Shown: positions 1,443 through 18,216, counted from the stretch's first letter. The stretch is DNA of 64,000 nt from Pontiella sp. (GCA_050290185.1 JBNKHE010000002.1:96001-160000), one strand, 5' to 3'. The notes: generated from the sequence alone by a model not told the origin. Program-made: numbers and translations.

Positions 1443-2711
1443 TCATTTCCGGCGGATGAGGGCAGAGAAGGCGCCATCGGTTTCGGATTCGGGGGGAAAG
1501 CATTTACTGGTTTTAACCAAGCGGAATTCGGGATGATCGGCAATCCAACGGGCGACGAGGTCTTCGTTTTCCTCGGCTTCGAGGCTGCAGGTGCTGTAAA
1601 CAATCCGGCCCTTTTCGTTCAGTAATGCCGCACAGGCGGTAAGGATCTGATATTGGAGCTCAACAATTTTTTCAATCCGTTCCGGATCAATGCGCCAACG
1701 TGCGTCGGCGCGGCGGCGTAAGACTCCGGTGTTTAGACAGGGCACATCAAGCAGGATAGCGTCGAACTTGCGGTCTCCGAGCGCCTTCGTCGGATTGCGG
1801 GCATCGCCCTGAACGATTTCGATCCAGTCGAGTTTCAGGCGCTTTTTGTTTTCCTTGAGCACGGCAATGCGATCGGCATGCAGATCCATGGCCACCAGTT
1901 CACCGGAACCGGTCATGCGACTGGCCATCATGGCGGCTTTTCCGCCGGGCGCGGCGCAGGCGTCAAACACGGCTTCGCCGGGACGCGGAGCGAGTAGATC
2001 GACGGAGATCGAGGTAGCCGGATCCTGCACGGTAAACCATCCTGCACCGTAGCCAGGCACTTTTTTCACGGCCACGCCGCGCGGCAGGACGAGAAAGATT
2101 TCACGGTCGGAAAAAGGATGCAGCAGCGGCTCGACACCGGCCTCGCGCAGCTTGTCGATGAACTCCGCGGCATCGACGACCGACTGGTCGATGCGCAACG
2201 TGGTGGCGGGCGGCTGGTTGTTCCATTCCGCCAGCGCAAGAGCATCGGCCTCGCCGTATTGCCGGATCCAGCGGTCGAGCAGAAACCTGGGGTGCGATAG
2301 CCGAACATGCGCGGGTTGCTCTTCCAGCGATTTAAGCACGTCGTCGCGTTCGCGCTGGGCGCGGCGCAACACGGCATTGATCATCTTGGCGGCCCCTTCC
2401 CCGCCGGGACGGGCCTTGGCCGCTTCGACCGTTTCGTTGATGGCGGCATACGCATCAACCTCCATAAAGAGGAGTTGGTAGAGTCCGACCTGAAGCACGG
2501 CCTTGAAAAAGGGTTGGGGCGGCTTTTTCAACCATTGCTTTTCCAACCAGTCGAAGATGCTGCGGTTGCGCACGGTTCCGTTAACCATCTCAAGCACAAA
2601 AGCGTGGTCGTCCCTCACCTTGGCGAGTTGGCGGTCCGGGAAGCTCCCATCCACGAGCCATTGGGCGATGATTTCCGCGGCAACGAGCCTGCTATTCCTC
2701 TTTTTGGCCAT
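1443..2711 (-). CDS. rsmB: 16S rRNA m5C967 methyltransferase RsmB/Sun
   Basis: NusB-like N-terminus (YAAINETVE, INAVLR), VQD, DACAAPGGK, LLDVPC and YSTCS motifs. Confidence 0.93.
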   Translation of the reverse strand: MAKKRNSRLVAAEIIAQWLVDGSFPDRQLAKVRDDHAFVLEMVNGTVRNRSIFDWLEKQWLKKPPQPFFKAVLQVGLYQLLFMEVDAYAAINETVEAAKARPGGEGAAKMINAVLRRAQRERDDVLKSLEEQPAHVRLSHPRFLLDRWIRQYGEADALALAEWNNQPPATTLRIDQSVVDAAEFIDKLREAGVEPLLHPFSDREIFLVLPRGVAVKKVPGYGAGWFTVQDPATSISVDLLAPRPGEAVFDACAAPGGKAAMMASRMTGSGELVAMDLHADRIAVLKENKKRLKLDWIEIVQGDARNPTKALGDRKFDAILLDVPCLNTGVLRRRADARWRIDPERIEKIVELQYQILTACAALLNEKGRIVYSTCSLEAEENEDLVARWIADHPEFRLVKTSKCFPPESETDGAFSALIRRK

Positions 2712-2868: not shown

Positions 2869-4221
2869 ATGAAAACGAAAATCAAACCAATGGTATCATG
2901 GAGTATTTGGGCCGGCGGTCTGTCGCTGGTCATGGGTATTGTGACCCGCAATCAGCTGGTAGCCGGATTTCAGGCCGACAACACGGGAATGAGTGCAGTC
3001 ATCGCCGCCGTATTCGGCGCAGGGCTGGTCATCTCCTTTCTGGCAGCCCGTCAACTGCATAAAGAATGGGGCGTGTTGAAGCTGATTTCGGAAACCGACA
3101 CGATTCCGGATTCGAAGAAGGAATCCGATTTGGCCGCCGTATTCAGCAAGCTGGCCTCCTATAAGACCAAGGGCGAAACCGTTGATATCAATGCCGCCAT
3201 CGACACCTACCATTCCAAGCACAATTCGCGGGTACGCTCCGTCTCCATTATTGCGGCTTTGGTCATTTCGATGGGGTTGCTGGGAACGGTCGTTGGCTTG
3301 ATCATGTCGATTTCCGGTCTGGGCGGCATGGTTGAAAACATCGGCCTTTCGCGCACCACGATGATGGAAGCACTCAAGGCTACCGTTGCCGGCATGGGCA
3401 CCGCCTTCTACACCACCTTCTTCGGGGCACTTGGGGGACTGATTCTGCGCGCGGTCGCCGTATCCCAGCTCAACTCGCTATCCGAACTGTGCGCGGAGGC
3501 CACGGAATATGCCGACGCCCACTTGACGACAAAACTTGAAAGCAAGGAAGAAGAGCTCAATCAGAAGGTATCGAAGGTCATCGCCAGCTTTGATGGCATG
3601 CAGAAAGAAATCGAAGCGATCACCGTTCGGATTTCCGAATCCTTTGACTCCACGATGCGTAGTTTTGGCAATGCTCTGGGTGAAGCCGGTGAACATGCCA
3701 TGACCGCAACCAAGGAATGCATCAATGGCATGACCGACCAGATGGCCGTGTTCGGTAGTGAAATCGGCGCCTCATTCGGCACCTTCAATGCATCGGTTGA
3801 AAAAGCCGGCGAGGAGGTGCTCGAAGCCATCGGTACCGTCAATCTATCCATCGAAAAGTCGGGCGAAGAACTGCATAGTGCCTTTGGCGGCCTGAACCAG
3901 TCGCTGGAAACAGCGGGCGAAGGCGTAGCTGAATCGTTCAACGGACTCAACGATACCGTAAAGGAATCGACCGATATAGTCAGCGGATCCCTCGCAGACT
4001 TCAAGCTGAGTATGGATGGCACTTCTCTGGAACTCAAGGACGCTATAGGCGAACTCCACAGCGCCATCAGCGAAGCCACCGGCGAAATGAAGACCCTTTC
4101 CAAGGCTCGGCTCGATGCGGATGCTTCCGAGATCGCCGGCCACCTCTCCGTAGCGGCCACCTCGATCCAGAAGTTCCTGAACACGAAGAATACACACGAC
4201 GAAAACCAGAAGGTGGCGTAA
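2869..4221 (+). CDS. MotA/TolQ/ExbB-family ion-channel subunit with long helical C-terminal tail (ZorA-like architecture)
   Basis: About four hydrophobic segments; family motifs SMGLLGTVVGL and GMGTAFYTTFFG; about 250-aa tail with 18-aa periodicity. Confidence 0.8.
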   Translation: MKTKIKPMVSWSIWAGGLSLVMGIVTRNQLVAGFQADNTGMSAVIAAVFGAGLVISFLAARQLHKEWGVLKLISETDTIPDSKKESDLAAVFSKLASYKTKGETVDINAAIDTYHSKHNSRVRSVSIIAALVISMGLLGTVVGLIMSISGLGGMVENIGLSRTTMMEALKATVAGMGTAFYTTFFGALGGLILRAVAVSQLNSLSELCAEATEYADAHLTTKLESKEEELNQKVSKVIASFDGMQKEIEAITVRISESFDSTMRSFGNALGEAGEHAMTATKECINGMTDQMAVFGSEIGASFGTFNASVEKAGEEVLEAIGTVNLSIEKSGEELHSAFGGLNQSLETAGEGVAESFNGLNDTVKESTDIVSGSLADFKLSMDGTSLELKDAIGELHSAISEATGEMKTLSKARLDADASEIAGHLSVAATSIQKFLNTKNTHDENQKVA

Positions 4222-5445
4222 ATGCGTGCGGCAACCCGACAGGAAGCAGCCTCCGGATCGGAAGGCGTATACGAGTCCTTCTCGGACATGGTGCTTTGCA
4301 CGGTAATCGTGCTCATCACCCTCGTGGTCGTACTGGCCCTGAATGTGGTACAGCAGCTCAATGTATACATCGAGCCCAACCACTTCAGTGGCGGTGCCAC
4401 CCGACCCTGGCTTTATCTCCAGGCGCAGAATACCGACTATTCAAAAACCTCCTCCGAAGGGCTCTCGCTTGAGCGCGCAGTATACGGGACCCGTCCGTTC
4501 GTGACGGTCAACCTGTTCAGCCCGGTCACGGCCAACTCGACCACCACCGTTCAGGATGGCCAGACCATCTCGGAGAGGGAAGGACAAACCTTCGACGGGC
4601 AGTGCGACCTAACGGCCTATAATTTCCTGCAGCTGGCCGCGGGCATCGAGCCCGGTTCGTTCCCGGTTGCCGGGAACCAGACCGCCCTCATGCTACCCAA
4701 GTTTTCGCACAAGGGCATTCTGGTCGAGTCCGGCGAGTCCAATGGATATATCGCCGAGCCCGACAATGCGCTTGCCTTGAAAGCCATGGCACTGGCATGG
4801 CCCATCTACGGCAATGCGCTCTATGCGCGTCGTGCGGCCAGTGACTACTTGAATGCGCGCACCAAGATCTTCGTCGAGGTTCTTGAATCAACCGACGACC
4901 AGCACCGGATCATGATCGGCCATAGCGTATTCACGCTTCCGCAGGATGTTGAAAACGGCAAGCTCGGCTGGCTGGCTGGTTTTTCTTCCGGCTTGACGGA
5001 AATGGTCTATCTCGGCAAGGCATGGAGCGATCCGGAAAACCAAACCAACAAGCGCATCGATTTCTTTGAAAAGAACGGCTTTGCCGATGCCGCGGCTGAT
5101 TACCGCGCATTCAGTTTCCCCAAGGGGTGGAGCCGGGCGCAACAGGAGCTGTTCGACGTAGCATGGGCCACCAACCCTGCCTTGTCGGAGAAGGCTCTGA
5201 AGCAGTATGCCCGGAACGCGGAGAACCAGATTGCGGTATCGTCGGCAATTATCAGCGGAACGAATGCACAGGAATACCTGCCACCGCTGCTGCGCCACCG
5301 CAATGCCTGGAAGGCCTATACCGATTTCTGCCTCTCACTCTCACAGGAAAGCGGCGATGCACCGCCAACGTGGCTCATGACCGAGTTTCTTGAACCGCTT
5401 GGCTTCGAACAGGCAGTCGTACGGGGTTTGAATACCGACTCCTAG
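4222..5445 (+). CDS. MotB/ZorB-like single-pass membrane protein with uncharacterised extracytoplasmic domain
   Basis: Starts immediately after the previous stop (TAA ATG); N-terminal YESFSDMVLCTVIVLITLVVVLAL has an Asp at the start of the TM helix, as in MotB/ExbD/ZorB. Confidence 0.65.
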   Translation: MRAATRQEAASGSEGVYESFSDMVLCTVIVLITLVVVLALNVVQQLNVYIEPNHFSGGATRPWLYLQAQNTDYSKTSSEGLSLERAVYGTRPFVTVNLFSPVTANSTTTVQDGQTISEREGQTFDGQCDLTAYNFLQLAAGIEPGSFPVAGNQTALMLPKFSHKGILVESGESNGYIAEPDNALALKAMALAWPIYGNALYARRAASDYLNARTKIFVEVLESTDDQHRIMIGHSVFTLPQDVENGKLGWLAGFSSGLTEMVYLGKAWSDPENQTNKRIDFFEKNGFADAAADYRAFSFPKGWSRAQQELFDVAWATNPALSEKALKQYARNAENQIAVSSAIISGTNAQEYLPPLLRHRNAWKAYTDFCLSLSQESGDAPPTWLMTEFLEPLGFEQAVVRGLNTDS

Positions 5446-6623
5446 AAAACCGCTCCCGGAAACTCTTCCAAAAGCAGCTCGATCTCGAGCTGCTTTTTTT
5501 CTTCCCGCAACAGCTTAAACCGAAGCGTCTCCCCCACCGAATGGTTGAATGTGATGCGCAGAACATCATACTCGTCCTTCACCGGTTTTCCATCCACCTC
5601 AAGAACCTGGTCGCCGACCTGGACCCCCGCGCGATCCGCCGGCGTATCGCGCCATACTTTCGCCACCCTTAAGCGGTGGTCTCCGGAAAACCCGAACGAG
5701 TTGAAGGCGGCACCCACCCATGGCCACTCATGCTTCCCTTTTTCGATCAGTGAGTTGGCAATTACCATCGCCAGATTCGAGGGCACGGCAAAAGCGATTC
5801 CAATGCCCTTCTCCTGCGCCTCAGTCAGGATCGCCGCATTAATCCCGACCAACCGTCCATCCACATCAATCAACGGACCGCCACTGTTCCCTTCGTTAAT
5901 AGCCACATCGGTCTGGATAAAATCCTCATAGGGAAGCACCTGCATACGGCGACCTTTTTGGCTGACATGACCAACGGTAACCGAACTTTGCAGGCTGAAC
6001 GGGGATCCGATCGCAATAACCATTTCCCCGATGCGCAAAGCATCAGAGTTTCCAAACTCCACGGCGGGGAAAACGGCGTCATTGGAATCGCCGGGGGCCG
6101 CGTCAGGAGAGGCGGCACCGTCGCCCTTGATCCTCAACACCGCCAGATCCGTTGCCTTATCGTGCCCCACCTCTTCGGCCTTGAGCTTGGTTCCATCATT
6201 GAGCACGACTTCAATCCACTTCACCCCTTCAATGACATGGTAGCTGGTGATGATATCGCCGCGCTCATCGATGATCACCCCCGACCCTTCGCCGGCCAGT
6301 TGTTCAGGCACATAGCGGTATTCCTGGAGAAATCCGAAAAGGTCGCGCTGTACCAGCTTAAGCACATACTGGGTCTTTTCCGTACGGATCACCACCACGG
6401 ACGGCATCACCTTTTCCACGGCATCCCCCAGCGCATCATTGAGCTCGCGGGCAATGTTGTAGTCGGAGACCGGCCGTTGCCGCGGAGCAAATGAACTGAC
6501 CGGTGCGGGATCAACAGGGGCCAATGCCTGATCGGCCCTATGGCGCCGCCAGGTCGAATGCAATGCACTCGCAATCATCAGGATGCAAAACCCAATCACC
6601 AGCCATTTGTTGCGGCTCTTCAT
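5442..6623 (-). CDS. htrA: HtrA/DegP-family serine protease, one PDZ domain
   Basis: N-terminal TM, GSGVII, TSYHVI, TDLAVL, IQTDVAINEGNSGGPL, C-terminal PDZ. Confidence 0.9.
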   Translation of the reverse strand: MKSRNKWLVIGFCILMIASALHSTWRRHRADQALAPVDPAPVSSFAPRQRPVSDYNIARELNDALGDAVEKVMPSVVVIRTEKTQYVLKLVQRDLFGFLQEYRYVPEQLAGEGSGVIIDERGDIITSYHVIEGVKWIEVVLNDGTKLKAEEVGHDKATDLAVLRIKGDGAASPDAAPGDSNDAVFPAVEFGNSDALRIGEMVIAIGSPFSLQSSVTVGHVSQKGRRMQVLPYEDFIQTDVAINEGNSGGPLIDVDGRLVGINAAILTEAQEKGIGIAFAVPSNLAMVIANSLIEKGKHEWPWVGAAFNSFGFSGDHRLRVAKVWRDTPADRAGVQVGDQVLEVDGKPVKDEYDVLRITFNHSVGETLRFKLLREEKKQLEIELLLEEFPGAVF

Positions 6624-9133: not shown

Positions 9134-11233
9134 TTAATCGGATGCGCCGGCATTCAAAAGCCGGGCTTTTTCCACCAGGCGAATGAACTCGGAGCGGTAG
9201 CCTTCCGCATCTTCGCCACGGGCGGTTTTAGCGCGTTCTATGACTTTCCCAAAGCTCGCATTGCCCTTGAATTCGGAGTCACGCAGCAGGAGACCGAATT
9301 CGGCAACCTCGCTGGCGAAACGGAAATTATCCGACGGCCTGCGACCTTCAACATCAGCCGCGGCAACCGTGCGCACCAGCAGCTTGCTCACATCGCTGTC
9401 CGGTTGTTTGTAGCGCAGTTTCACCGTCATCAGGTCATCGCTATCAACCAGCTGTGTCCGCTGGTACATCAGTTCCTCCGCCACCGGAACGGTCTCACCG
9501 GATCCTGCCGGAATCAGCTCGTAGAGCGCGGTCACCGTATGTCCGGCGCCCAGTTCGCCCGCATCTTTTTTATCGTCGTCGAAATCCTCCTTGGCCAACA
9601 TGCGGTTTTCGTAGCCGATCAAACGGTAGGCCTTAATCTGGGCCGGGTTGAATTCCACCTGGATTTTCACATCCTTGGCGATGGTCAGCAGCGTACCGCC
9701 CATTTCGTTGACGAGCGTCTTCTTTGCCTCGAGGATATCGTCGATGTAGGCATAGTTGCCGTTGCCCTTGTCGGCCAGCTTTTCCATCTTGGAATCCTTG
9801 AGATTGCCACGACCGAATCCAAGCACGGTGAGGTAGATCCCGGACTTTCGTTTGTCCTCGATGATACGTACCAGCTCGCCGTCGGAACTGACGCCGATGT
9901 TAAAGTCGCCGTCGGTCGCAAGGATCACGCGGTTGTTGCCGTTCTTGATGAAGCCTTCCTGCGCAGTCCGGTAGGCCAGTTCAATGCCCGCCCCGCCCGC
10001 GGTGGAACCTCCGGCATTCAATCGTTCAATTGCCTCGGCGATCCGTTCCTTGTCGGCGGTCGGCTCCAACACCAGCCCGGCGGCACCGGCATAGACCACG
10101 ATGGAAACCCGGTCCTCGGGCCGAAGCTGATCGACCAGCAGACGCATGGCGGACTTCAACAACGGAAGCTTGTCGGGGCTGTCCATCGATCCGGAAACAT
10201 CCAGCAGGAAAACGAGATTGTTCGACGGGAGATCCCGGGTGTCGACCTTCACGCCCTGCAGCCCCACCATCGCCAGCTGGTGACCATCGTTCCATGGACA
10301 GTCGGCAACCTCCAGCGAGATGGCAAAGGGATCCTCGCCCTCGGGTTCCGGATAGTTATAGTCGAAGTAGTTGATCATCTCTTCGATGCGCACGGCATCG
10401 GGCGGAGGAAGCTGGTTGTCGTTCAGGAAGCGCCGCACATTGGCATAGGCCGCCCGGTCGACATCGATCGAGAACGTCGACAGCGGGTTGTCCATTGCCA
10501 TCTTGAAAGCGTTTTCCGGAATCCAATCATACTGTTCCGTATTGAAATCGGATGCCGCCCGAGCGCGAGAAAAAGCCCCCTCGCGTTTATACTGCACCAC
10601 CCCCGATGCACTGAATCCGTCCGTATCAAACAATGCAAGGCCGTACGTGGAGGACTTATCAGCGACGGCGCTTCCTCCGGCTAGCCTGGGCATACTAACG
10701 ATATCGGACGGCACCTGAACCGGAGCTTCCGCGCCTGCCTGTTTGGACTTCGCCACCACCTGCTTACCCCACTTGGCCTCGGGGATCGGCATCGAGCCTT
10801 TATCCACGGGTACATGGATCTCTTCCCGGGCTATTTCGACCGGCTCTTTCTTGATCGCTACCACCACCGGCTCATGTTTTTTCGGGAAGATATTGAACAC
10901 AACAACACTGCCGGAAATGACGATAAACAGCGACGCCAGCGCACCGGCGGCCAAGGTCGACTTGAACTGCGGGCTGTACCAGATTTTCCCGAACCAGTGG
11001 CCGGACCCGGTCTTTTTGCGATGAATGGCATACCAGGGCTTCAGCGTTTCGGGGGCCGGAGCGCCGGCCAGGGCGTCGCCCAGCAGGGAGAGCGCTACCC
11101 GTTGCGCTTCCAGTTCGGCGCGGCACGCCACGCAGCTTTCCAGATGCTGTTCTAGGGCGCATGATTCGCTTTCACCAAGTTCGCCGTGCATGTAGGCGAC
11201 CAACTGTTTTTCAAATTGATTACATTTTTTCAT
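9134..11233 (-). CDS. Zinc anti-sigma (zf-HC2)-TM-YfbK-like VWA protein, copy 1
   Basis: N-terminal C...HLESCVAC, one TM, STFSIDVD, VRIEEMINYF, MIDAS LLDVSGSM, ATDGDFN, YRLIGYENR, DAGELGAGH (DUF3520-type C-terminus). Confidence 0.88.
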   Translation of the reverse strand: MKKCNQFEKQLVAYMHGELGESESCALEQHLESCVACRAELEAQRVALSLLGDALAGAPAPETLKPWYAIHRKKTGSGHWFGKIWYSPQFKSTLAAGALASLFIVISGSVVVFNIFPKKHEPVVVAIKKEPVEIAREEIHVPVDKGSMPIPEAKWGKQVVAKSKQAGAEAPVQVPSDIVSMPRLAGGSAVADKSSTYGLALFDTDGFSASGVVQYKREGAFSRARAASDFNTEQYDWIPENAFKMAMDNPLSTFSIDVDRAAYANVRRFLNDNQLPPPDAVRIEEMINYFDYNYPEPEGEDPFAISLEVADCPWNDGHQLAMVGLQGVKVDTRDLPSNNLVFLLDVSGSMDSPDKLPLLKSAMRLLVDQLRPEDRVSIVVYAGAAGLVLEPTADKERIAEAIERLNAGGSTAGGAGIELAYRTAQEGFIKNGNNRVILATDGDFNIGVSSDGELVRIIEDKRKSGIYLTVLGFGRGNLKDSKMEKLADKGNGNYAYIDDILEAKKTLVNEMGGTLLTIAKDVKIQVEFNPAQIKAYRLIGYENRMLAKEDFDDDKKDAGELGAGHTVTALYELIPAGSGETVPVAEELMYQRTQLVDSDDLMTVKLRYKQPDSDVSKLLVRTVAAADVEGRRPSDNFRFASEVAEFGLLLRDSEFKGNASFGKVIERAKTARGEDAEGYRSEFIRLVEKARLLNAGASD

Positions 11234-11847
11234 GATACCACCCCCGCCTGGCGCAGGCTTTGGGTTAATTTGCGGGTTGCGGAATGGATCAGGGAACCGA
11301 CATAGCCTTCCGAGCGATTGATCACCGAGGCAATCTCCTTGTAGGACATCTCCTCCTGCAAACGCAGGACGAGCACTTCCCGTTCCTTCGGGCGCAGGGA
11401 ACCCAGGTGCTGCAATACCAACGCATGCCGCTCATCTCGATCGCGCCGCTTCTCATCATCATTGGCGGCATAGCGCTCTTCCTGCTTCGACTGCCGGTCA
11501 TGCAAGGACCGCAAGCGAGACTCCTTACGGATAAAGTCGACCGCCGCATTGTGCGTGGTCCGGAACAGCCATCCCTTGATAGGCACACGCCGGTTCATGA
11601 CTTTGTCCCAGTTTTCGTGAAGTCGGATGAACGCTTCCTGCACCACATCCTGGGCCGCATCCTGATTATTCAACACCCGCGTTGCATACCGGAGCAAGGT
11701 TGCCTGATATTGTTCCATAACACCCTCCAGATCCATTGATGCCGTATCCTTAACCGCAGGGGATGGCTCCAAAGGTGATTTATCGGCCTCAGGCTTTGTG
11801 CCGTGGATGATCTCTGTTTTCTTCATGTCCAACGTACCAAATACCAT
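11230..11847 (-). CDS. ECF sigma factor, copy 1
   Basis: AQDVVQEAFIRL, WLFRTTHN (region 2); LRPKEREVLVLR...MSYKEIA (region 4); ATGA overlap with the anti-sigma gene. Confidence 0.92.
   Translation of the reverse strand: MVFGTLDMKKTEIIHGTKPEADKSPLEPSPAVKDTASMDLEGVMEQYQATLLRYATRVLNNQDAAQDVVQEAFIRLHENWDKVMNRRVPIKGWLFRTTHNAAVDFIRKESRLRSLHDRQSKQEERYAANDDEKRRDRDERHALVLQHLGSLRPKEREVLVLRLQEEMSYKEIASVINRSEGYVGSLIHSATRKLTQSLRQAGVVS
11231..11267. repeat. Direct repeat at sigma/anti-sigma junction (copy A; copy B at 20831-20867)
   Basis: catgataccacccccgcctg/tgcgcaggctttgggtta, 36 of 37 nt identical, 9600 nt apart. Confidence 0.85.
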
Positions 11848-11898
11848 AGGTCGATCCCCTAGTCCATCGGTCCTGTCAATTTACGGACTTCATAGTGG

Positions 11899-11925
11899 AT
11901 ACGCCTTCCGGGTGTATTTTCTTTG
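11899..11925 (-). promoter_or_regulatory. Putative autoregulatory ECF promoter for sigma copy 1
   Basis: Minus strand CAAAGA-aaatacacccggaagg(16)-CGTAT; same boxes and spacing as 21410-21436. Confidence 0.7.
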
Positions 11926-11946
11926 CGGCGTCCCGAACAATATTTA

Positions 11947-14900
11947 TCACGCGCTCCGTCTCAGACGGCCCAGCCAGCATCCTGAAACCAGAATGAGACC
12001 GGCAGACAGAGCAACCACAACCGTCTGGACCGCACGTCCGCCCCGGGAGGGCGCGGCGCTGAACTTCACTTCCATCTCGGTATCGGACTGGAGCTGCAGC
12101 GTACGCGTGAATCCGAGTCGGGTTCCCTGCTGGGCCATGACCACCCGTATCGGATGGACTTCGACGGCAGCCGCCTGCTGCTGGTCGAGCATGCGTTCCG
12201 CAAGGTTACTCAGTGCACTGCTTTCCTTTTCACCCAATTGCGCCTCGATCTTCTGCACATCGTTACCCGACCATTGCTCGACCGGAACCATTTCGTTGCC
12301 ATCGGTCAGGTTCAGCGACTGCTTCAGCTGGTTGCGGCGGTTAACCAGTCCAACCACACCCTGCTGCCGCACCAGATTGCGGTACTGCACCCGGGCGTCC
12401 TCATTGAGATCCTGCTGTCCCTGCGAGTAGGAGATGGCCTGTTCGAACGCCTTGCGGGCACCGCGCTGATCACCGCTTTCCATGTAGCTGTTGGCCGTCA
12501 CGATGCTTTCCTTGGCGCTGTCGCCAAACTGCTGCGAGGTATCGGCGTTATAGCGGATGTATTCAGCTTCGCTGAAGGTCGCCATGCGCGACTTCCAGGG
12601 GGATGCCGCTTCCTGGTATTCCAGTGTTCCATCAAAGCCGGAATAGCGGTATCCATCCGGTGCATAAAACGTCCAGACCACATCGCGCAGGGGCAGCTTG
12701 AATTGCGGGCCCATAAAATCGAGCTTGCGACCAAACCAACTCTTTTTCCACGACTGGGCATACATGACCTCCACCGCCGCGGACTGGTCTGTCCCGGGTT
12801 CGATAGGAATCAGGTAGAGGCCCTCCTCCACCAGCGGGCGAACCGCAGTCTCGTTGACAAAGACCGACCAGATCTGCGCACCTTCCGGAAGCCGCATTTC
12901 AAGGAAGCGGAGCGCACCGGGATCGAGCGTCATGGCCATGTTGTTGAGGGTCTGGCCGTCCATGGTAATGAGTGAATCGAGCCGGACGGAGCGGACCTGC
13001 GCCGGCAGGACTTCGGCGGCATCATGGCGCACGGCATTGAGCTTCAGGGCATAATCGCGTTCGGTGGCGCGATAGCAGAGTACCGCATCGGACAGATCGC
13101 CGGCACCAAAGCGGTGCGGAATGCTGCGGGCATCCTCGGCTCGCAGCGACTCGGGAACCTCAGCCGGCTTGACCTGCAGGCGTCCACTGGAAAGAACCGT
13201 AATGTAGCCTTTCTGGCTGTCGGTGCCGACTGTCTGCAGCGGATGGATGACGAGTTCTGAATTGTCGTGGGCGAACGGAACCTGATACGCCACTTCCATA
13301 CCGTAGCGGTCTTCAACCTTGCCGTGCAGTTCCACTTCCCAGAGACCCTCTTCCTCATTGATTCTGCGCACCCGGGCAATGTTGCGTCCGGAAACCACCA
13401 GCGCAATGTCCGGACGCGGCGGCTGAAGCAGGAAGGTTTTCACGCCGGCATGCTCGATCTCGTATTGTACATAGCAACGGACCTTGAGCATTCCTTCCGA
13501 AAGCGCAATGCGTTGCAGAACTTCGGTCTTTACCTGGGGTTCGAGCACCTCCGAATGGAGATGGATCGACCAGTCGGGGCGCAACAGCCGGTAGGCCAGG
13601 CTGCCCTCCTGCCGGATACCCATCTCACGCGGATTGATTTCGCTGACGCCATCGCGCAACGCCGGTGTGATCCGGATACCGCGCTCCACAGTTACCCCCA
13701 GGGAGCCTGTATGCTTCAGTACCCCATCGATTCGGATGCGCGGCATCGTGAAATCCGCATCGAGGTCGCGGCCGGATCGGCTGAGCACCAGATTCAGCGG
13801 CACGTCTCCCAGGATCTGGCGCTTGAAGTTGACGACCACCTCACGGGCGGCACTATTCACTTCATCCCAATGACTGATGGCGTCGCCGGTCAGCGAATCG
13901 ACATCAAACCCCTCTGGAATCCGAATACGCAACGAAAAGATTCCGGACTTGCTGACCTTAATATTGAGTCGGCTCGTCATGCGCATCTGCTCAGTGGCGA
14001 TATCCAGGCTCGTGTCTTCGACCAGACGCAGCTCGGGCAGCACCTCGTCGGCCGAAACGTGGGCCGAAAACGGCAAGAGATTGTAGCGGAAGGCCCGCTT
14101 GATCGAGCCCTCGGCGGAAATCTCCAGAAGACGGGCGGCATCGCCGATATTGATTCCGCTCAGTGCATCGACCGACTCGATATCGATCTGAACCGCATCC
14201 GGCGAAGCCATCGCCACCACACCGCGCTGCATGGCGGCCCCCTGAACGGCGATCCCTTGGAGTGTGATATCGTAGGGGAGTTTGTCGCGCGCAATCTGCG
14301 CACCGATCTGCATGCGGTAAGACTCGGTGGCCGGCACCGACAGCACCACTTCCAGCAGGCCGGTATCGGGATCGTAGCGCCAGGTGGCCACTTCGCTGCC
14401 GCGAACCTCCGTAATGCTCATGCCGGCAGGAACATCGAACCGCAGGTTCTGCAACTCGCCCTGTGCAATGTTAAACCGGACATCGTGCCGCAGATCAACC
14501 ATACCGGGTTGGAAGTCGGCCAGCGTGTTGACATCGCAGAAAAAACGCGCCTGCTCCAGATCGGTTTTGCGTTCCTCGGGTTTCCAGCCAAGCGTGCATA
14601 GACTCGTTCGGCTGCCGAACAGCACCTCCGCCCGGACCCCTTCCTGCCGGATGCGGATGGCCTCTTTCGACTGCAGGTTCCATCCTTCGACCGGCAGGGT
14701 AATGACTGCCGCATTTTGCAGGGATGCGGGAATCCAAAGGTTTGCGTTCCATACGCCTTCGTCATAATCCGCTTCCACCAGATAATCGACCGACACCTTG
14801 TATTTCCCACCGCGTTCCACGTGCAGCGTGCATCCGTTTTCATCCTGCACAACCTGCAGACGGCGCGAGGACAGATCGTAGTTCTTAATCACGAAACCGG

Positions 14901-17900
14901 GCCCAAGAAGCTGGAGCGTTTCGCCTTCTTCAGCCTTCATTTCCAGTTCCATGTGCACATTAACATTCACGCGGCTTTCGGTTTCGAACTCCGGCACGGA
15001 AACCGTCAAATCAACGCGTTGCGCCACTGCAGATTTGGGTGTCGACGGTTCTTCCTTGCCCTGTACCGTCGTGCATCCGGCGGCCAAAACCGCCATCACG
15101 GCCAGAATCAGGCCCAACAGCCTGATCTGTACCGAACCCTCCGAACCGGTGGTCGGCATTTCGGGCTGATAGGCGGGCATCTTTTTTTCGCCACGCCGTT
15201 CCGGGTCGCTTTCACCGGACCGGCGACCGGCCAGCCAACAGGTGGTAAACAGCAACGCCAGCGGGAACAGAAGGGTTACCCATGCCAGATAGGGGCTGAA
15301 GGCGCAGACTGCGGCCAGTAACGCAACTGCCGGCATCAGCAGTTTTTGTTTTCGCGTAATCAGCACCCACCCCAGCGGCACCAGGCCCACCAATAACAGC
15401 AGCAGGGTTTGAGCGGCTTCATATCCGGCTCCTACCATTTTAAGATTCACCAACAATCCACCGTCGGAACCGGAAACCGACTTGGTGAAGACCCACTCCG
15501 TCGGTATATCGGCCGATACGGTAAGCATTCCAAGTACAACATACAGCGCCACACCGCCAACCACCAGAACCCCACCCAGCTCAACGAGGACCAGTAAAAA
15601 CCGGATAAAGGAAAAACCACGCAGGCGTCCGCGCAAATACAGCGCAGCAGCCAATAACGCCACGGCAACGATCCAGAAGACCAGCATTTCAGAGCCAAAG
15701 TTCAACAGCATGGCTCCCAGTCCCGTTTTCCGACCGGACAACGGTCCTGGCATTTCCATATTCCCCTTAGCAGAGGCAAGACGTTTCCCGTCCGGCAACC
15801 GGAATGCCCAGCGGGCGAAAACCGCCTGGGCGTCCACTTCAGGGGCCTTGAATTCCATCCAGGAAACCATGCCCGGCTCCTTGAGCTGCTGGGCATAAGT
15901 GATCTCCACCTTGAGCGGAGCGTTGGGATCGCGCCGGCGTTCCACCGGAATCAGTACTTCACCGTCACCACGATCGAGAACCTGGGTCTTGCTCCCCTCC
16001 ACCTTGACAGACCACAGCGATGCATCCTCCGGAAGGCGCATCGAGAAATATTGGCGGTCCGTATTCTTGACGTGATAAACTGCCACGGTGACGGCTTCGC
16101 CGTCCTTGCTGATGGTGGTGTCGAAGGTGGTATGATCCGCCACCTGGGTCAACAGTGGCTGGATTGAGAAACGCTTGATCCGCACCTGCGCCTCGTGCGG
16201 AGTGGCCACATACTTGTAGGCATGCATGATCGTATCGTTGACCAGCAATGCATACTCTTCCGGAATCTCGCCGACATCAATCGGCAGGATGGTCGTATCA
16301 TGCCCGATTTCCTCATCGAGCGAGAGATTGGCGGCACCGGCCAGAGCGATATAGCCCGTTTCATTTTCGATATCCAGCGTTCGAATCCCGCCGAGCAACA
16401 GCTCTTCCCCCTGGTATTTTGCCGGATGATCGTAGGTGACCAGCAACGTGTAGTCGCCGAGTACCTTCTGCTGAAGATGGATCGTCCATTCATCGCCGTC
16501 CCGCGTCCAATTGCGGATATCCCGCCCGTGCAACTCCACATTACGGTATGCCGGCGGAACCCGCAGTGTAAAACTGCGCGTCGGCGCATTGGCTACGTTG
16601 TAGGTGACCAGACAGCTGCCAAATACCCCACTCTCGCCCAGTGAAACCAGCTGGAACGATTCAGCATGGATCGACGATTCCTCCTGGCGGACGCTGACGC
16701 GTCCGGACCAGTCCGGGCTCTTGAACCGGAAAGCCTGCCGCGCATCGGTAATCCGGATCGGCAGCGAGCCGGTATTCACTTCGCGCAACCCGGCAAGGTC
16801 GGTTCCCTCCAGACGGGTTCCCGTTTCGCCACGTAGCACAAGGAAGCCACGCTCGGACCGGGCCCCCGACACCTTGAATGTGGGAATGCCGAAACCCGTG
16901 GCCCCTTCCGGCAGGGTTCTTTCCAGCCGCACCTGAAGTAACGTGCGCGTGTCCACCGCCTTTTTGAAATAGACCTTGATCCAACGCGAACCCTCGCGGT
17001 CGCGCACATCGTAGTCCGCCACGTTCTGGCCTTCCACGGCGGCAACGGTCCAATCCTTCGATACCTCCAGTTCCACCTCCCGGGTGGGTGCGTCGCGAAC
17101 TTCGAGATCGACCTTTGCGTCGACCGAGGCATCAAATTCGCTCAAAGCCAGCACCAACTGATTTTCCGCATCGAGCGAGGTCACAATGTTATCGGCCGTG
17201 AGCTTCATACTGAATGGCATGTTTGCGAACATATAGGCATACAGTCCGCGCGCCGGCCGGCTGAGTGGGTCCCAGTTGATGGCATCCGGTTCCACCTGGG
17301 TCAGTCCACCCAATCCATCGACCAGCAACTTGATGGTGCTGTCCGTGCCCACCAGCACCACGCCGTTGGCGCGGATAACATCCTGCGGCTCAATAACCGG
17401 AAATTCAAAGGAACAGGGAAAATCCGAAAGCGACTGCTCCGCCTGCACCGTCAGAACATATTGTTTTTCGTGGGGACGGCTTAGCTCGACATGCAGCTGG
17501 CGCGCCGTATCGTTTCCACGTACATCCCAGGAGAGAACATCTTCGCCGTTGACCTGGATAATGTTCAGGCCGGCCGGCAGCGCCAGCGAGAGTTCCTTCA
17601 TGCGGCCCTGCGGAATGGTGTAGATAAACTGTCCCTGCAACAACAGGGCGCCGACTTTGGCCGAGCCCACAAAAATGCTGTCGCACGAGGCTACGAGTTC
17701 CCCGGAAAGTTTTTCGAGTTCGGGGCTCCAATCGATCCGTACCGTACCGGTCGGCGGCAGATAGGCCTGAAGGCGTTTTTCGTCGAGTTTCTCCGTGCTC
17801 GGGGCGTTGGCCACCTCGACCTTGTAGCCCTCTTTTTCGGCATCCAGCGTGATTTTTCGCACCGTGGCGGACGGCAGCCCGAAAACCGCCGCCCGCCGCT

Positions 17901-18216
17901 GACCGGAGGAGAAGACCTTGGCTTCAAAATCGATTTCGACGTCCTGCTTGCCGTTCTTGCCAAACTCGATGTAGTAAGTGCCGTCCTCCAGCACCATCTC
18001 CGCACCGCGCGGCAAATCCAGTTTTGTGGGAACCACGCCGCCCTCCAGCACCATGATGCGAACCGGAGCCCCTTCAACCTGCGCCTCGAACGTCATTTTC
18101 AGGGCCAGCTCATCTTCGGAAATTCGGCCTGTCAGTTCTACCTGCTTGATCGCCACATCAGCCACGGCCACACCGGCGAGCAGACACATCAAAAAAACCA
18201 TCCATATACGTTTCAT
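11947..18216 (-). CDS. 2089-aa exported/membrane hypothetical protein with twofold internal duplication
   Basis: Signal peptide, beta-rich repeats, central cluster of TM segments, C-terminal TM anchor with basic tail (GRLRRSA); GGAGG-like RBS upstream. Confidence 0.8.
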   Translation of the reverse strand: MKRIWMVFLMCLLAGVAVADVAIKQVELTGRISEDELALKMTFEAQVEGAPVRIMVLEGGVVPTKLDLPRGAEMVLEDGTYYIEFGKNGKQDVEIDFEAKVFSSGQRRAAVFGLPSATVRKITLDAEKEGYKVEVANAPSTEKLDEKRLQAYLPPTGTVRIDWSPELEKLSGELVASCDSIFVGSAKVGALLLQGQFIYTIPQGRMKELSLALPAGLNIIQVNGEDVLSWDVRGNDTARQLHVELSRPHEKQYVLTVQAEQSLSDFPCSFEFPVIEPQDVIRANGVVLVGTDSTIKLLVDGLGGLTQVEPDAINWDPLSRPARGLYAYMFANMPFSMKLTADNIVTSLDAENQLVLALSEFDASVDAKVDLEVRDAPTREVELEVSKDWTVAAVEGQNVADYDVRDREGSRWIKVYFKKAVDTRTLLQVRLERTLPEGATGFGIPTFKVSGARSERGFLVLRGETGTRLEGTDLAGLREVNTGSLPIRITDARQAFRFKSPDWSGRVSVRQEESSIHAESFQLVSLGESGVFGSCLVTYNVANAPTRSFTLRVPPAYRNVELHGRDIRNWTRDGDEWTIHLQQKVLGDYTLLVTYDHPAKYQGEELLLGGIRTLDIENETGYIALAGAANLSLDEEIGHDTTILPIDVGEIPEEYALLVNDTIMHAYKYVATPHEAQVRIKRFSIQPLLTQVADHTTFDTTISKDGEAVTVAVYHVKNTDRQYFSMRLPEDASLWSVKVEGSKTQVLDRGDGEVLIPVERRRDPNAPLKVEITYAQQLKEPGMVSWMEFKAPEVDAQAVFARWAFRLPDGKRLASAKGNMEMPGPLSGRKTGLGAMLLNFGSEMLVFWIVAVALLAAALYLRGRLRGFSFIRFLLVLVELGGVLVVGGVALYVVLGMLTVSADIPTEWVFTKSVSGSDGGLLVNLKMVGAGYEAAQTLLLLLVGLVPLGWVLITRKQKLLMPAVALLAAVCAFSPYLAWVTLLFPLALLFTTCWLAGRRSGESDPERRGEKKMPAYQPEMPTTGSEGSVQIRLLGLILAVMAVLAAGCTTVQGKEEPSTPKSAVAQRVDLTVSVPEFETESRVNVNVHMELEMKAEEGETLQLLGPGFVIKNYDLSSRRLQVVQDENGCTLHVERGGKYKVSVDYLVEADYDEGVWNANLWIPASLQNAAVITLPVEGWNLQSKEAIRIRQEGVRAEVLFGSRTSLCTLGWKPEERKTDLEQARFFCDVNTLADFQPGMVDLRHDVRFNIAQGELQNLRFDVPAGMSITEVRGSEVATWRYDPDTGLLEVVLSVPATESYRMQIGAQIARDKLPYDITLQGIAVQGAAMQRGVVAMASPDAVQIDIESVDALSGINIGDAARLLEISAEGSIKRAFRYNLLPFSAHVSADEVLPELRLVEDTSLDIATEQMRMTSRLNIKVSKSGIFSLRIRIPEGFDVDSLTGDAISHWDEVNSAAREVVVNFKRQILGDVPLNLVLSRSGRDLDADFTMPRIRIDGVLKHTGSLGVTVERGIRITPALRDGVSEINPREMGIRQEGSLAYRLLRPDWSIHLHSEVLEPQVKTEVLQRIALSEGMLKVRCYVQYEIEHAGVKTFLLQPPRPDIALVVSGRNIARVRRINEEEGLWEVELHGKVEDRYGMEVAYQVPFAHDNSELVIHPLQTVGTDSQKGYITVLSSGRLQVKPAEVPESLRAEDARSIPHRFGAGDLSDAVLCYRATERDYALKLNAVRHDAAEVLPAQVRSVRLDSLITMDGQTLNNMAMTLDPGALRFLEMRLPEGAQIWSVFVNETAVRPLVEEGLYLIPIEPGTDQSAAVEVMYAQSWKKSWFGRKLDFMGPQFKLPLRDVVWTFYAPDGYRYSGFDGTLEYQEAASPWKSRMATFSEAEYIRYNADTSQQFGDSAKESIVTANSYMESGDQRGARKAFEQAISYSQGQQDLNEDARVQYRNLVRQQGVVGLVNRRNQLKQSLNLTDGNEMVPVEQWSGNDVQKIEAQLGEKESSALSNLAERMLDQQQAAAVEVHPIRVVMAQQGTRLGFTRTLQLQSDTEMEVKFSAAPSRGGRAVQTVVVALSAGLILVSGCWLGRLRRSA

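Follow-up and report, generated by a model that had tools for sequence, protein, structure and literature searches.

A MotA/ExbB-type gene pair in Pontiella with a PEGA-repeat lipoprotein as its conserved partner

The A/B Locus

The window, a 64,000-nucleotide stretch of Pontiella sp. DNA (GCA_050290185.1 JBNKHE010000002.1:96001-160000), carries two abutting genes on its plus strand. Gene A (2869..4221) encodes a MotA/ExbB-family channel subunit of 450 aa, identified from its ORF, Pfam, hydropathy and the alignment of its homologues, while gene B (4222..5445) encodes a 407-aa protein with one membrane helix and a periplasmic domain without a recognised family, as defined by its ORF, profile searches and a structural model. 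Both ORFs were found where an initial inspection of the DNA, the sequence-only reading, had placed them. Pfam also identifies two of the neighbours that it named: rsmB (1443..2711, minus strand), which is fixed upstream and lies outside the system, and an htrA-type protease gene (5442..6623, minus strand), which is fixed and convergent and is retained where the A/B pair has been lost. A further neighbour is presumably xseA, a name assigned from its sequence. The absence of tonB and flagellar genes from the window was borne out, with the TonB matches lying outside it and FliG_C not found in the genome. The genome's other MotA_ExbB, ExbD and TonB matches in profile searches likewise all fall outside the window.

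Just past the B stop codon and within the 3' end of htrA lies a 12-pair hairpin followed by T (5470-5497); sites of this kind were near chance level, and promoter and terminator scans gave results at chance level. Elsewhere, the minus strand of 9134-18216 encodes an ECF sigma factor and a zinc-finger/vWA protein downstream of a 2,089-aa protein, for which PADLOC gave no match.

Among 5,746 candidates, 109 B homologues were recovered at E<=0.001; most share 60-81% identity and are named Pontiella or relatives, and a second group stands at about 42% identity. A has 154 homologues. A profile search with B gave 91 cluster representatives, including clusters labelled Desulfobulbaceae, Leptospiraceae and Planctomycetota, so the B family extends past the order, thinly. 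Two profiles run against a sample of 401 genomes of the phylum gave B matches in no genus but that of the window. Among loci of the window's clade with enough flanking sequence, rsmB is upstream in 22 of 23 and htrA downstream in 22 of 24, and mean conservation over 18 loci is 71% for B, 74% for rsmB and 63% for htrA. The B tree follows the housekeeping tree, and searches of phage, plasmid and viral collections gave no match to B. The A/B locus is fixed and vertically inherited within Pontiella.

Subunit A: Channel, Tail, and Ion

A matches Pfam MotA_ExbB (PF01618) over residues 107-185 with 35.8 bits against a cut-off of 22.9, and both of its channel motifs recur in 118 of 120 homologues, confirming the family originally proposed from those motifs. 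Its hydropathy profile has four hydrophobic segments, the first of them weak. The channel helices (residues 127-198; 3247..3462, plus strand) contain G136, T140, A179, T182 and T183, which are invariant in 37/37 aligned sequences. In PomA, the sodium site is formed by G154, T158, A182, T185 and T186, and the same source, available in part, describes three threonines conserved in sodium stators, two of which are alanine in proton stators (PMC10374538). Judged by motif spacing, the five residues of A are inferred to be equivalent to the PomA site. ZorAB has been called probably proton-driven because extra polar residues are missing, according to the text available to us (PMC11946911). The ZorA of 8VVN has T, T and S at the three corresponding positions, and the presence of hydroxyl residues there too makes the sodium assignment for A a soft one. 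The genus is described, in the accessible part of its account, as requiring at least 10 g/L NaCl (PMC7356697). The motor is likely sodium-coupled, as its channel residues suggest.

One homologue of A, P0204, begins as first-clade sequence and continues as second-clade sequence after a switch inside the last channel helix; it is either a recombinant or an assembly chimera.

Beyond the channel, A has a cytoplasmic tail (3514..4218, plus strand) supported by periodicity and alignment. A 3.6-residue amphipathic periodicity runs over the C-terminal ~235 residues, in agreement with the long helical tail described earlier at 250 aa. The length of this tail differs between homologues, and residues 415-430 at its tip are conserved.

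Subunit B: Helix and Periplasmic Domain

B has a single hydrophobic helix at its N-terminus, with the aspartate that the sequence-only reading had picked out. The residue is Asp22 (4285..4287, plus strand), the predicted ion carrier, and the motif around it aligns to the helix of ZorB in 8VVN; Asp22 is conserved in 79 of 91 aligned homologues, the others having four asparagines and eight gaps. The distant full-length relatives P0241, P0243, P0245 and P0246 carry Asn instead of the channel Asp, and possibly are non-conducting or are partnered with an altered A.

The rest of B, residues 46-407 (4357..5442, plus strand), forms a periplasmic domain that AlphaFold2 models with a pLDDT of 94.9 and a pTM of 0.93; the whole-B model has a pLDDT of 91.4. 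Searches of Pfam, PADLOC and NCBIfam with B gave no match at E<=1, and a B profile found none among PDB sequences at E<=10. Structure comparisons were equally silent. The whole-B model gave no Foldseek PDB match at E<=0.001, and VIA matched the membrane helix only, at Z<5; the domain alone had no match at Z>=2 in a set of 48,161 representatives and gave no Foldseek match at E<=0.001 in the PDB and viral sets, a lack of listed fold matches that neither proves a new fold nor excludes an OmpA-like family. Matches in the ESM Atlas were all below 0.9. The domain thus stays as unrecognised as it first appeared. A longer fused form of B was searched for and none was found, which is weak evidence. Among the relatives, two distant ones weakly match the ExbD or MotB_plug profiles, and 5 of 91 touch a ZorB profile.

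Two short stretches of B, IMIGHS and NKRIDF, had been read as degenerate OmpA-like traces. That reading is not supported: B has no OmpA profile match, and the model places the stretches at a hairpin and at a helix; the same residues are predicted, from the complex model described below, to line the pocket for a lipoprotein tail. PF00691 (OmpA) matched two other genes of the genome and PF02472 (ExbD/TolR) nine others, B being in neither set.

A wider group, P0285-P0318, comprises proteins of about 300-450 aa with the B helix motif and a dissimilar middle. Its aligned rows share a conserved C-terminal motif; one member of the group is labelled Planctomycetota and two have PDZ matches.

Lipoprotein C, the Third Gene

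The pair had been taken to stand alone, with no effector genes. The neighbourhoods of its homologues do not bear this out: the A/B pair is not an orphan, and a PEGA-repeat lipoprotein, C, is its conserved partner, linked to B and lost jointly with it. In all 27 paralogous copies, defined as B matches outside the window's clade with an assembled 3' end among 89 genomes of the order (two contig-end 5' pieces excluded), a C match follows B at 16-62 nt, on the same strand in 26 and convergent in one. In the window's own genome C is encoded on another contig, outside the window, beside phoH (G000:C7:101225-102571, equivalent to L051:10226-11572); it is a 448-aa protein with its lipobox cysteine at Cys24. 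At three loci (L008, L085 and L086) the window-clade C is 0.1-6 kb away from A. The B and C trees, built from 51 paired rows, contain the same deep groups, and both place the window's clade as sister to the convergent AB-C loci.

The tail of C is nearly invariant: identity within the clade is 96% over the final 16 residues and 66% over the remainder. The tails are clade-specific, nearly all having a final Phe or Tyr. A C profile found no PDB sequence at E<=0.001. The genome search returned LolA_like only and not Pfam LolA, which counts against a firm assignment of C to the outer membrane.

Another PEGA-repeat lipoprotein of the same genome (G000:C8:117347-118762; L172:6366-7766) was considered as the partner and rejected, since it sits among FHA and T2SSE-type ATPase genes; it likely belongs to a Tad-type pilus locus.

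At G000:C2:34904-35246 (L052:8905-9247) the window's genome has a broken remnant of a second-clade C, at a site where relatives hold a whole second A-B-C operon; the flanking genes are presumably rsgA-like and apt-like. The window's genome has lost its second-clade A-B-C copy. A 95-aa protein without a family follows the second-clade C (L043:8193-8480) and is retained in the window's genome despite the loss of the operon. In clade 3, C is followed by a protein of 1,080-1,220 aa (L046:11811-15467, L068:9098-12670 and L088:9517-12771), which we take to resemble an autotransporter; one of these proteins gave no Pfam match at E<=0.01.

Joint Presence and Joint Loss

Among 53 genomes of the genus, A and B are present in 42 and C in 41, and the same 11 are without all three. 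When only the window's clade is counted in these 53 genomes, 31 have B and C, 20 have neither, two have B only and none has C only; assignment to clades used score band, the length of the ORF and adjacency to phoH, and a few genomes hinge on the score band and phoH adjacency. The two B-only genomes, G429 and G433, are 78% and 71% complete; in one of them phoH sits where a contig begins, and the other gave no phoH. One of the 20 genomes with neither carries a B broken by stops; this is G299, in which the interrupted window-clade B (L047:4834-6247) accompanies an intact second-clade operon.

In genomes without the window-clade A/B pair, rsmB abuts htrA in 11/11 sampled rsmB loci, while their phoH loci have an intact C in 0/9 and remnants in 4/9, one ending too early to judge. 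A four-gene housekeeping tree was built for 30 of the 53 genomes, 19 that have the clade's genes and 11 that lack them, and presence and absence require at least seven changes on it. The pattern therefore does not stem from a single event; related genomes are non-independent, and no probability is attached to this count.

C also occurs without the motor. In another family of the same order, f2, a C-family protein is present in 29 of 33 genomes and A and B in one of 33; 15 sampled f2 neighbourhoods contained no B and no convincing A (one weak coiled-coil match). The f2 proteins cluster with the window-clade C, apart from the other paralogue clades. In 12 of the 15 the conserved tail is replaced by a membrane helix plus a basic stretch, and the remaining three lack both tail and helix. 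A genome of a sister genus (G402, 79% complete) has an intact C, and all that is left of B between rsmB and htrA is a remnant. C can thus persist without the motor and does not always need A and B. The exchange of tail for membrane anchor in f2 fits C as a tether whose inner end would be fixed by B in one case and by a helix of its own in the other.

Model of the B-C Complex

B residues 46-407 were folded together with C residues 290-448, a segment of 159 residues that leaves the first four PEGA repeats outside the modelled part. The model scored 0.64, and the best of three controls 0.00. Of 157 solved complexes, 116 pass the mark used, as do 2 of 215 mismatched pairs; these counts hold roughly here, where own alignments were supplied. 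Runs share at least 73% of their contacts, with a partner pLDDT of at least 78. Sequence searches gave no solved relative for either B or C, so the score is unlikely to reflect structures that the predictor had already learned.

On the side of C, the interface is limited to residues 433-448 of the supplied segment. In the model, C residues 433-438 slot in between strands 127-131 and 163-168 of B (4600..4725, plus strand), the closest pairs having an expected error of 2.1-3 Å, and Ser447 contacts B residues 234-236. The I232-G233-H234 hairpin together with N276 and R278 (4915..5055, plus strand) forms part of a predicted pocket for the end of the C tail. N276 and R278 are both in the modelled interface, and R278 is inferred to bind the terminal carboxylate of C. 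The periplasmic domain of B is accordingly annotated as the predicted receptor for the C tail, on the AlphaFold2 and complex models. It is probable, on the strength of this model, that the C tail binds B directly, and A, B and C very probably form one unit.

Comparison with Known Motors

The ZorAB-like architecture first proposed for the pair survives in part. Among solved structures the membrane parts are nearest ZorAB: an A profile finds ZorA of 8VVN as its best match (E 1e-10), and the helix motif of a broad B profile aligns to ZorB of 8VVN (E 0.0066). A TRIM5 coiled coil scored equally, which makes the ZorB helix match weak. Family scores are far below the ZorA cut-offs, with a PADLOC E of 9e-8 and NCBIfam scores of 23.9 bits against a cut-off of 500 and 15.9 against 700 and 100. 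Zorya ZorAB (types I-III; 8VVN, 8QYD) shares a MotA-type A with a long cytoplasmic helical tail and a B helix motif with an essential Asp. It differs in that the B described here has no OmpA-like profile match, A probably has four helices rather than three, three Thr are found at the ion site, the partner is a lipoprotein, and the locus is fixed and vertically inherited. The long ZorA tail is described as recruiting effectors (PMC11946911, consulted in part). The absence of zorC, zorD and zorE nearby was upheld by a profile search of 28 neighbours from several loci, which was negative. Across the genome, which is 95.5% complete, single profiles gave no match for ZorE and helicase cores only for ZorD; the ZorC profile also gave no match, its controls being silent too.

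The genome holds a complete Tol-Pal cluster, TonB and several ExbBD-type clusters. Its TonB_C matches are on other contigs, and C has no TonB_C domain. ExbBD-TonB and TolQR-TolA share the channel family, and the partner peptide is predicted to add a strand to the B subunit, as ExbD captures the TonB D-box by strand addition in the portion of PMC10907165 available. They differ from the present system in two respects: here the B domain is 360 aa and lacks an ExbD match, and the lipoprotein is held by its C-terminus, whereas TonB and TolA are anchored in the inner membrane.

PomAB and MotAB share the four-helix layout of A, judged by hydropathy, and the three-threonine spacing of sodium stators; here, in contrast, A has a long tail, no OmpA-like profile match is found, and FliG_C gave 0 matches in the 95.5% complete genome with a control positive in 4 of 14. 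The genus is described as non-motile in the accessible part of its account (PMC7356697). GldLM/PorLM of type IX secretion and gliding offers what appears, by analogy, to be the same layout of a tailed pentamer, a large periplasmic dimer subunit and a partner near the outer membrane; no GldL or GldM family is among the Pfam matches of A or B. The GldL tail has been proposed as an anchor, a point left open in the part of the source consulted (PMC9389320).

By profile, the pair departs from Zorya in its family score, in the lack of an OmpA-like match and in the lack of effectors in the locus, and B gave no match to ExbD/TolR. As far as its available text goes, a survey of MotAB homologues describes diverse non-flagellar forms with no mention of PEGA, lipoprotein or Kiritimatiell- (PMC12505986), and one of force transducers, likewise seen in part, does not mention PEGA or Kiritimatiell- (PMC12204202). 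No published description of such an A-B-C system was found in the literature searched, mostly open-access main texts, whose supplements could list these proteins. The output module of AB-C is undescribed, and its core is of a known motor kind.

Proposed Mechanism and Alternatives

The favoured model, held at a little better than even confidence, is an A/B motor that acts on a lipoprotein tether for envelope upkeep and not for phage defence. A and B would form an ion-driven motor of 5:2 stoichiometry, the stoichiometry and rotation being those of the family, and ion flow past Asp22 would turn B against the A ring. The periplasmic domain of B is predicted to grip the last 16 residues of C by adding a strand between two of its own, with the chain end placed at the IGH hairpin and N276/R278. 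The C lipid would sit in the outer membrane, and the A tail, about 35 nm long if helical, may serve as a cytoplasmic anchor or drag by analogy with the proposal for GldL. The motor would then tension or reposition an outer-membrane tether, and this physiological job is the weakest step of the model. Of the two options that the sequence-only reading had left side by side, the non-defence one is supported. Since the genome has Tol-Pal and Ton sets of its own and FliG gave no match, AB-C is an additional, dispensable system; with a complete Tol-Pal cluster and 11 of 53 genomes without A, B and C, any envelope role must be dispensable.

Two other roles would accommodate the same unit. A-B-C could energise outer-membrane transport or secretion, with C as a TonB-like force transducer to some outer-membrane protein. 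The predicted strand addition resembles ExbD with the TonB D-box (PMC10907165, seen in part), and three clade 3 loci have the long protein after C. That protein, which we take to be autotransporter-like, has no Pfam match, however; no outer-membrane gene is common to all clades, and the genome is already equipped with TonB and several ExbBD-type clusters, with C lacking TonB_C, so that this role seems unlikely. Slightly less likely again is a Zorya-like sensor, in which C would replace peptidoglycan as the anchor of B, and A with its tail would rotate on envelope disturbance to call in a cytoplasmic effector whose gene lies elsewhere, serving either defence or a stress signal. The proximity of both membrane parts to ZorAB among solved structures, the B relatives that touch the ZorB profile, repeated loss, and an HtrA protease as fixed neighbour are consistent with it, as is a long A tail with a conserved tip, of the type that recruits effectors in the available part of PMC11946911. 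It sits poorly with a housekeeping locus fixed between its flanks, a B tree that tracks the housekeeping tree, the lack of phage, plasmid and viral matches, and htrA staying in place after A/B loss, and also with the negative search for ZorC/D/E among the neighbours, the lack of a ZorE profile match in the genome and the helicase cores that are the only ZorD matches.

The membership of A in PF01618 and the two B relatives that weakly touch ExbD or MotB_plug would also suit an ordinary ExbBD, TolQR or MotAB paralogue to which C is linked by chance. The ExbD and OmpA profiles pick out other genes and not B, FliG_C was not found in a genus described as non-motile (PMC7356697, in part), and the linkage of B and C in 27/27 copies, together with joint loss, makes a chance-linked C unlikely; such a paralogue is very improbable.

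Implications

Known 5:2 motors, namely MotAB, ExbBD, TolQR, AglRQS, GldLM and ZorAB, vary in the partner held by the B subunit and in the load that is driven. To these the candidate motor would add a new B domain with a defined ligand, the 16-residue tail, so its coupling is directly testable by peptide, and material exists, as cultured Pontiella species are among the named sources of homologues. AB-C may represent a distinct class of 5:2 motor, with a Zorya-related core, a new peptide-gripping B fold and a lipoprotein tether between the membranes, and a sister family that has a passive anchor instead; this broader claim is tentative, at somewhat under even confidence. If the tether model is true, the locus would show that ZorAB has a relative outside defence and that an outer-membrane tether can be energised while bypassing peptidoglycan, and it would bear on the origin of ZorAB, on the pentamer tail as an anchor, and on how the two membranes are linked in these bacteria.
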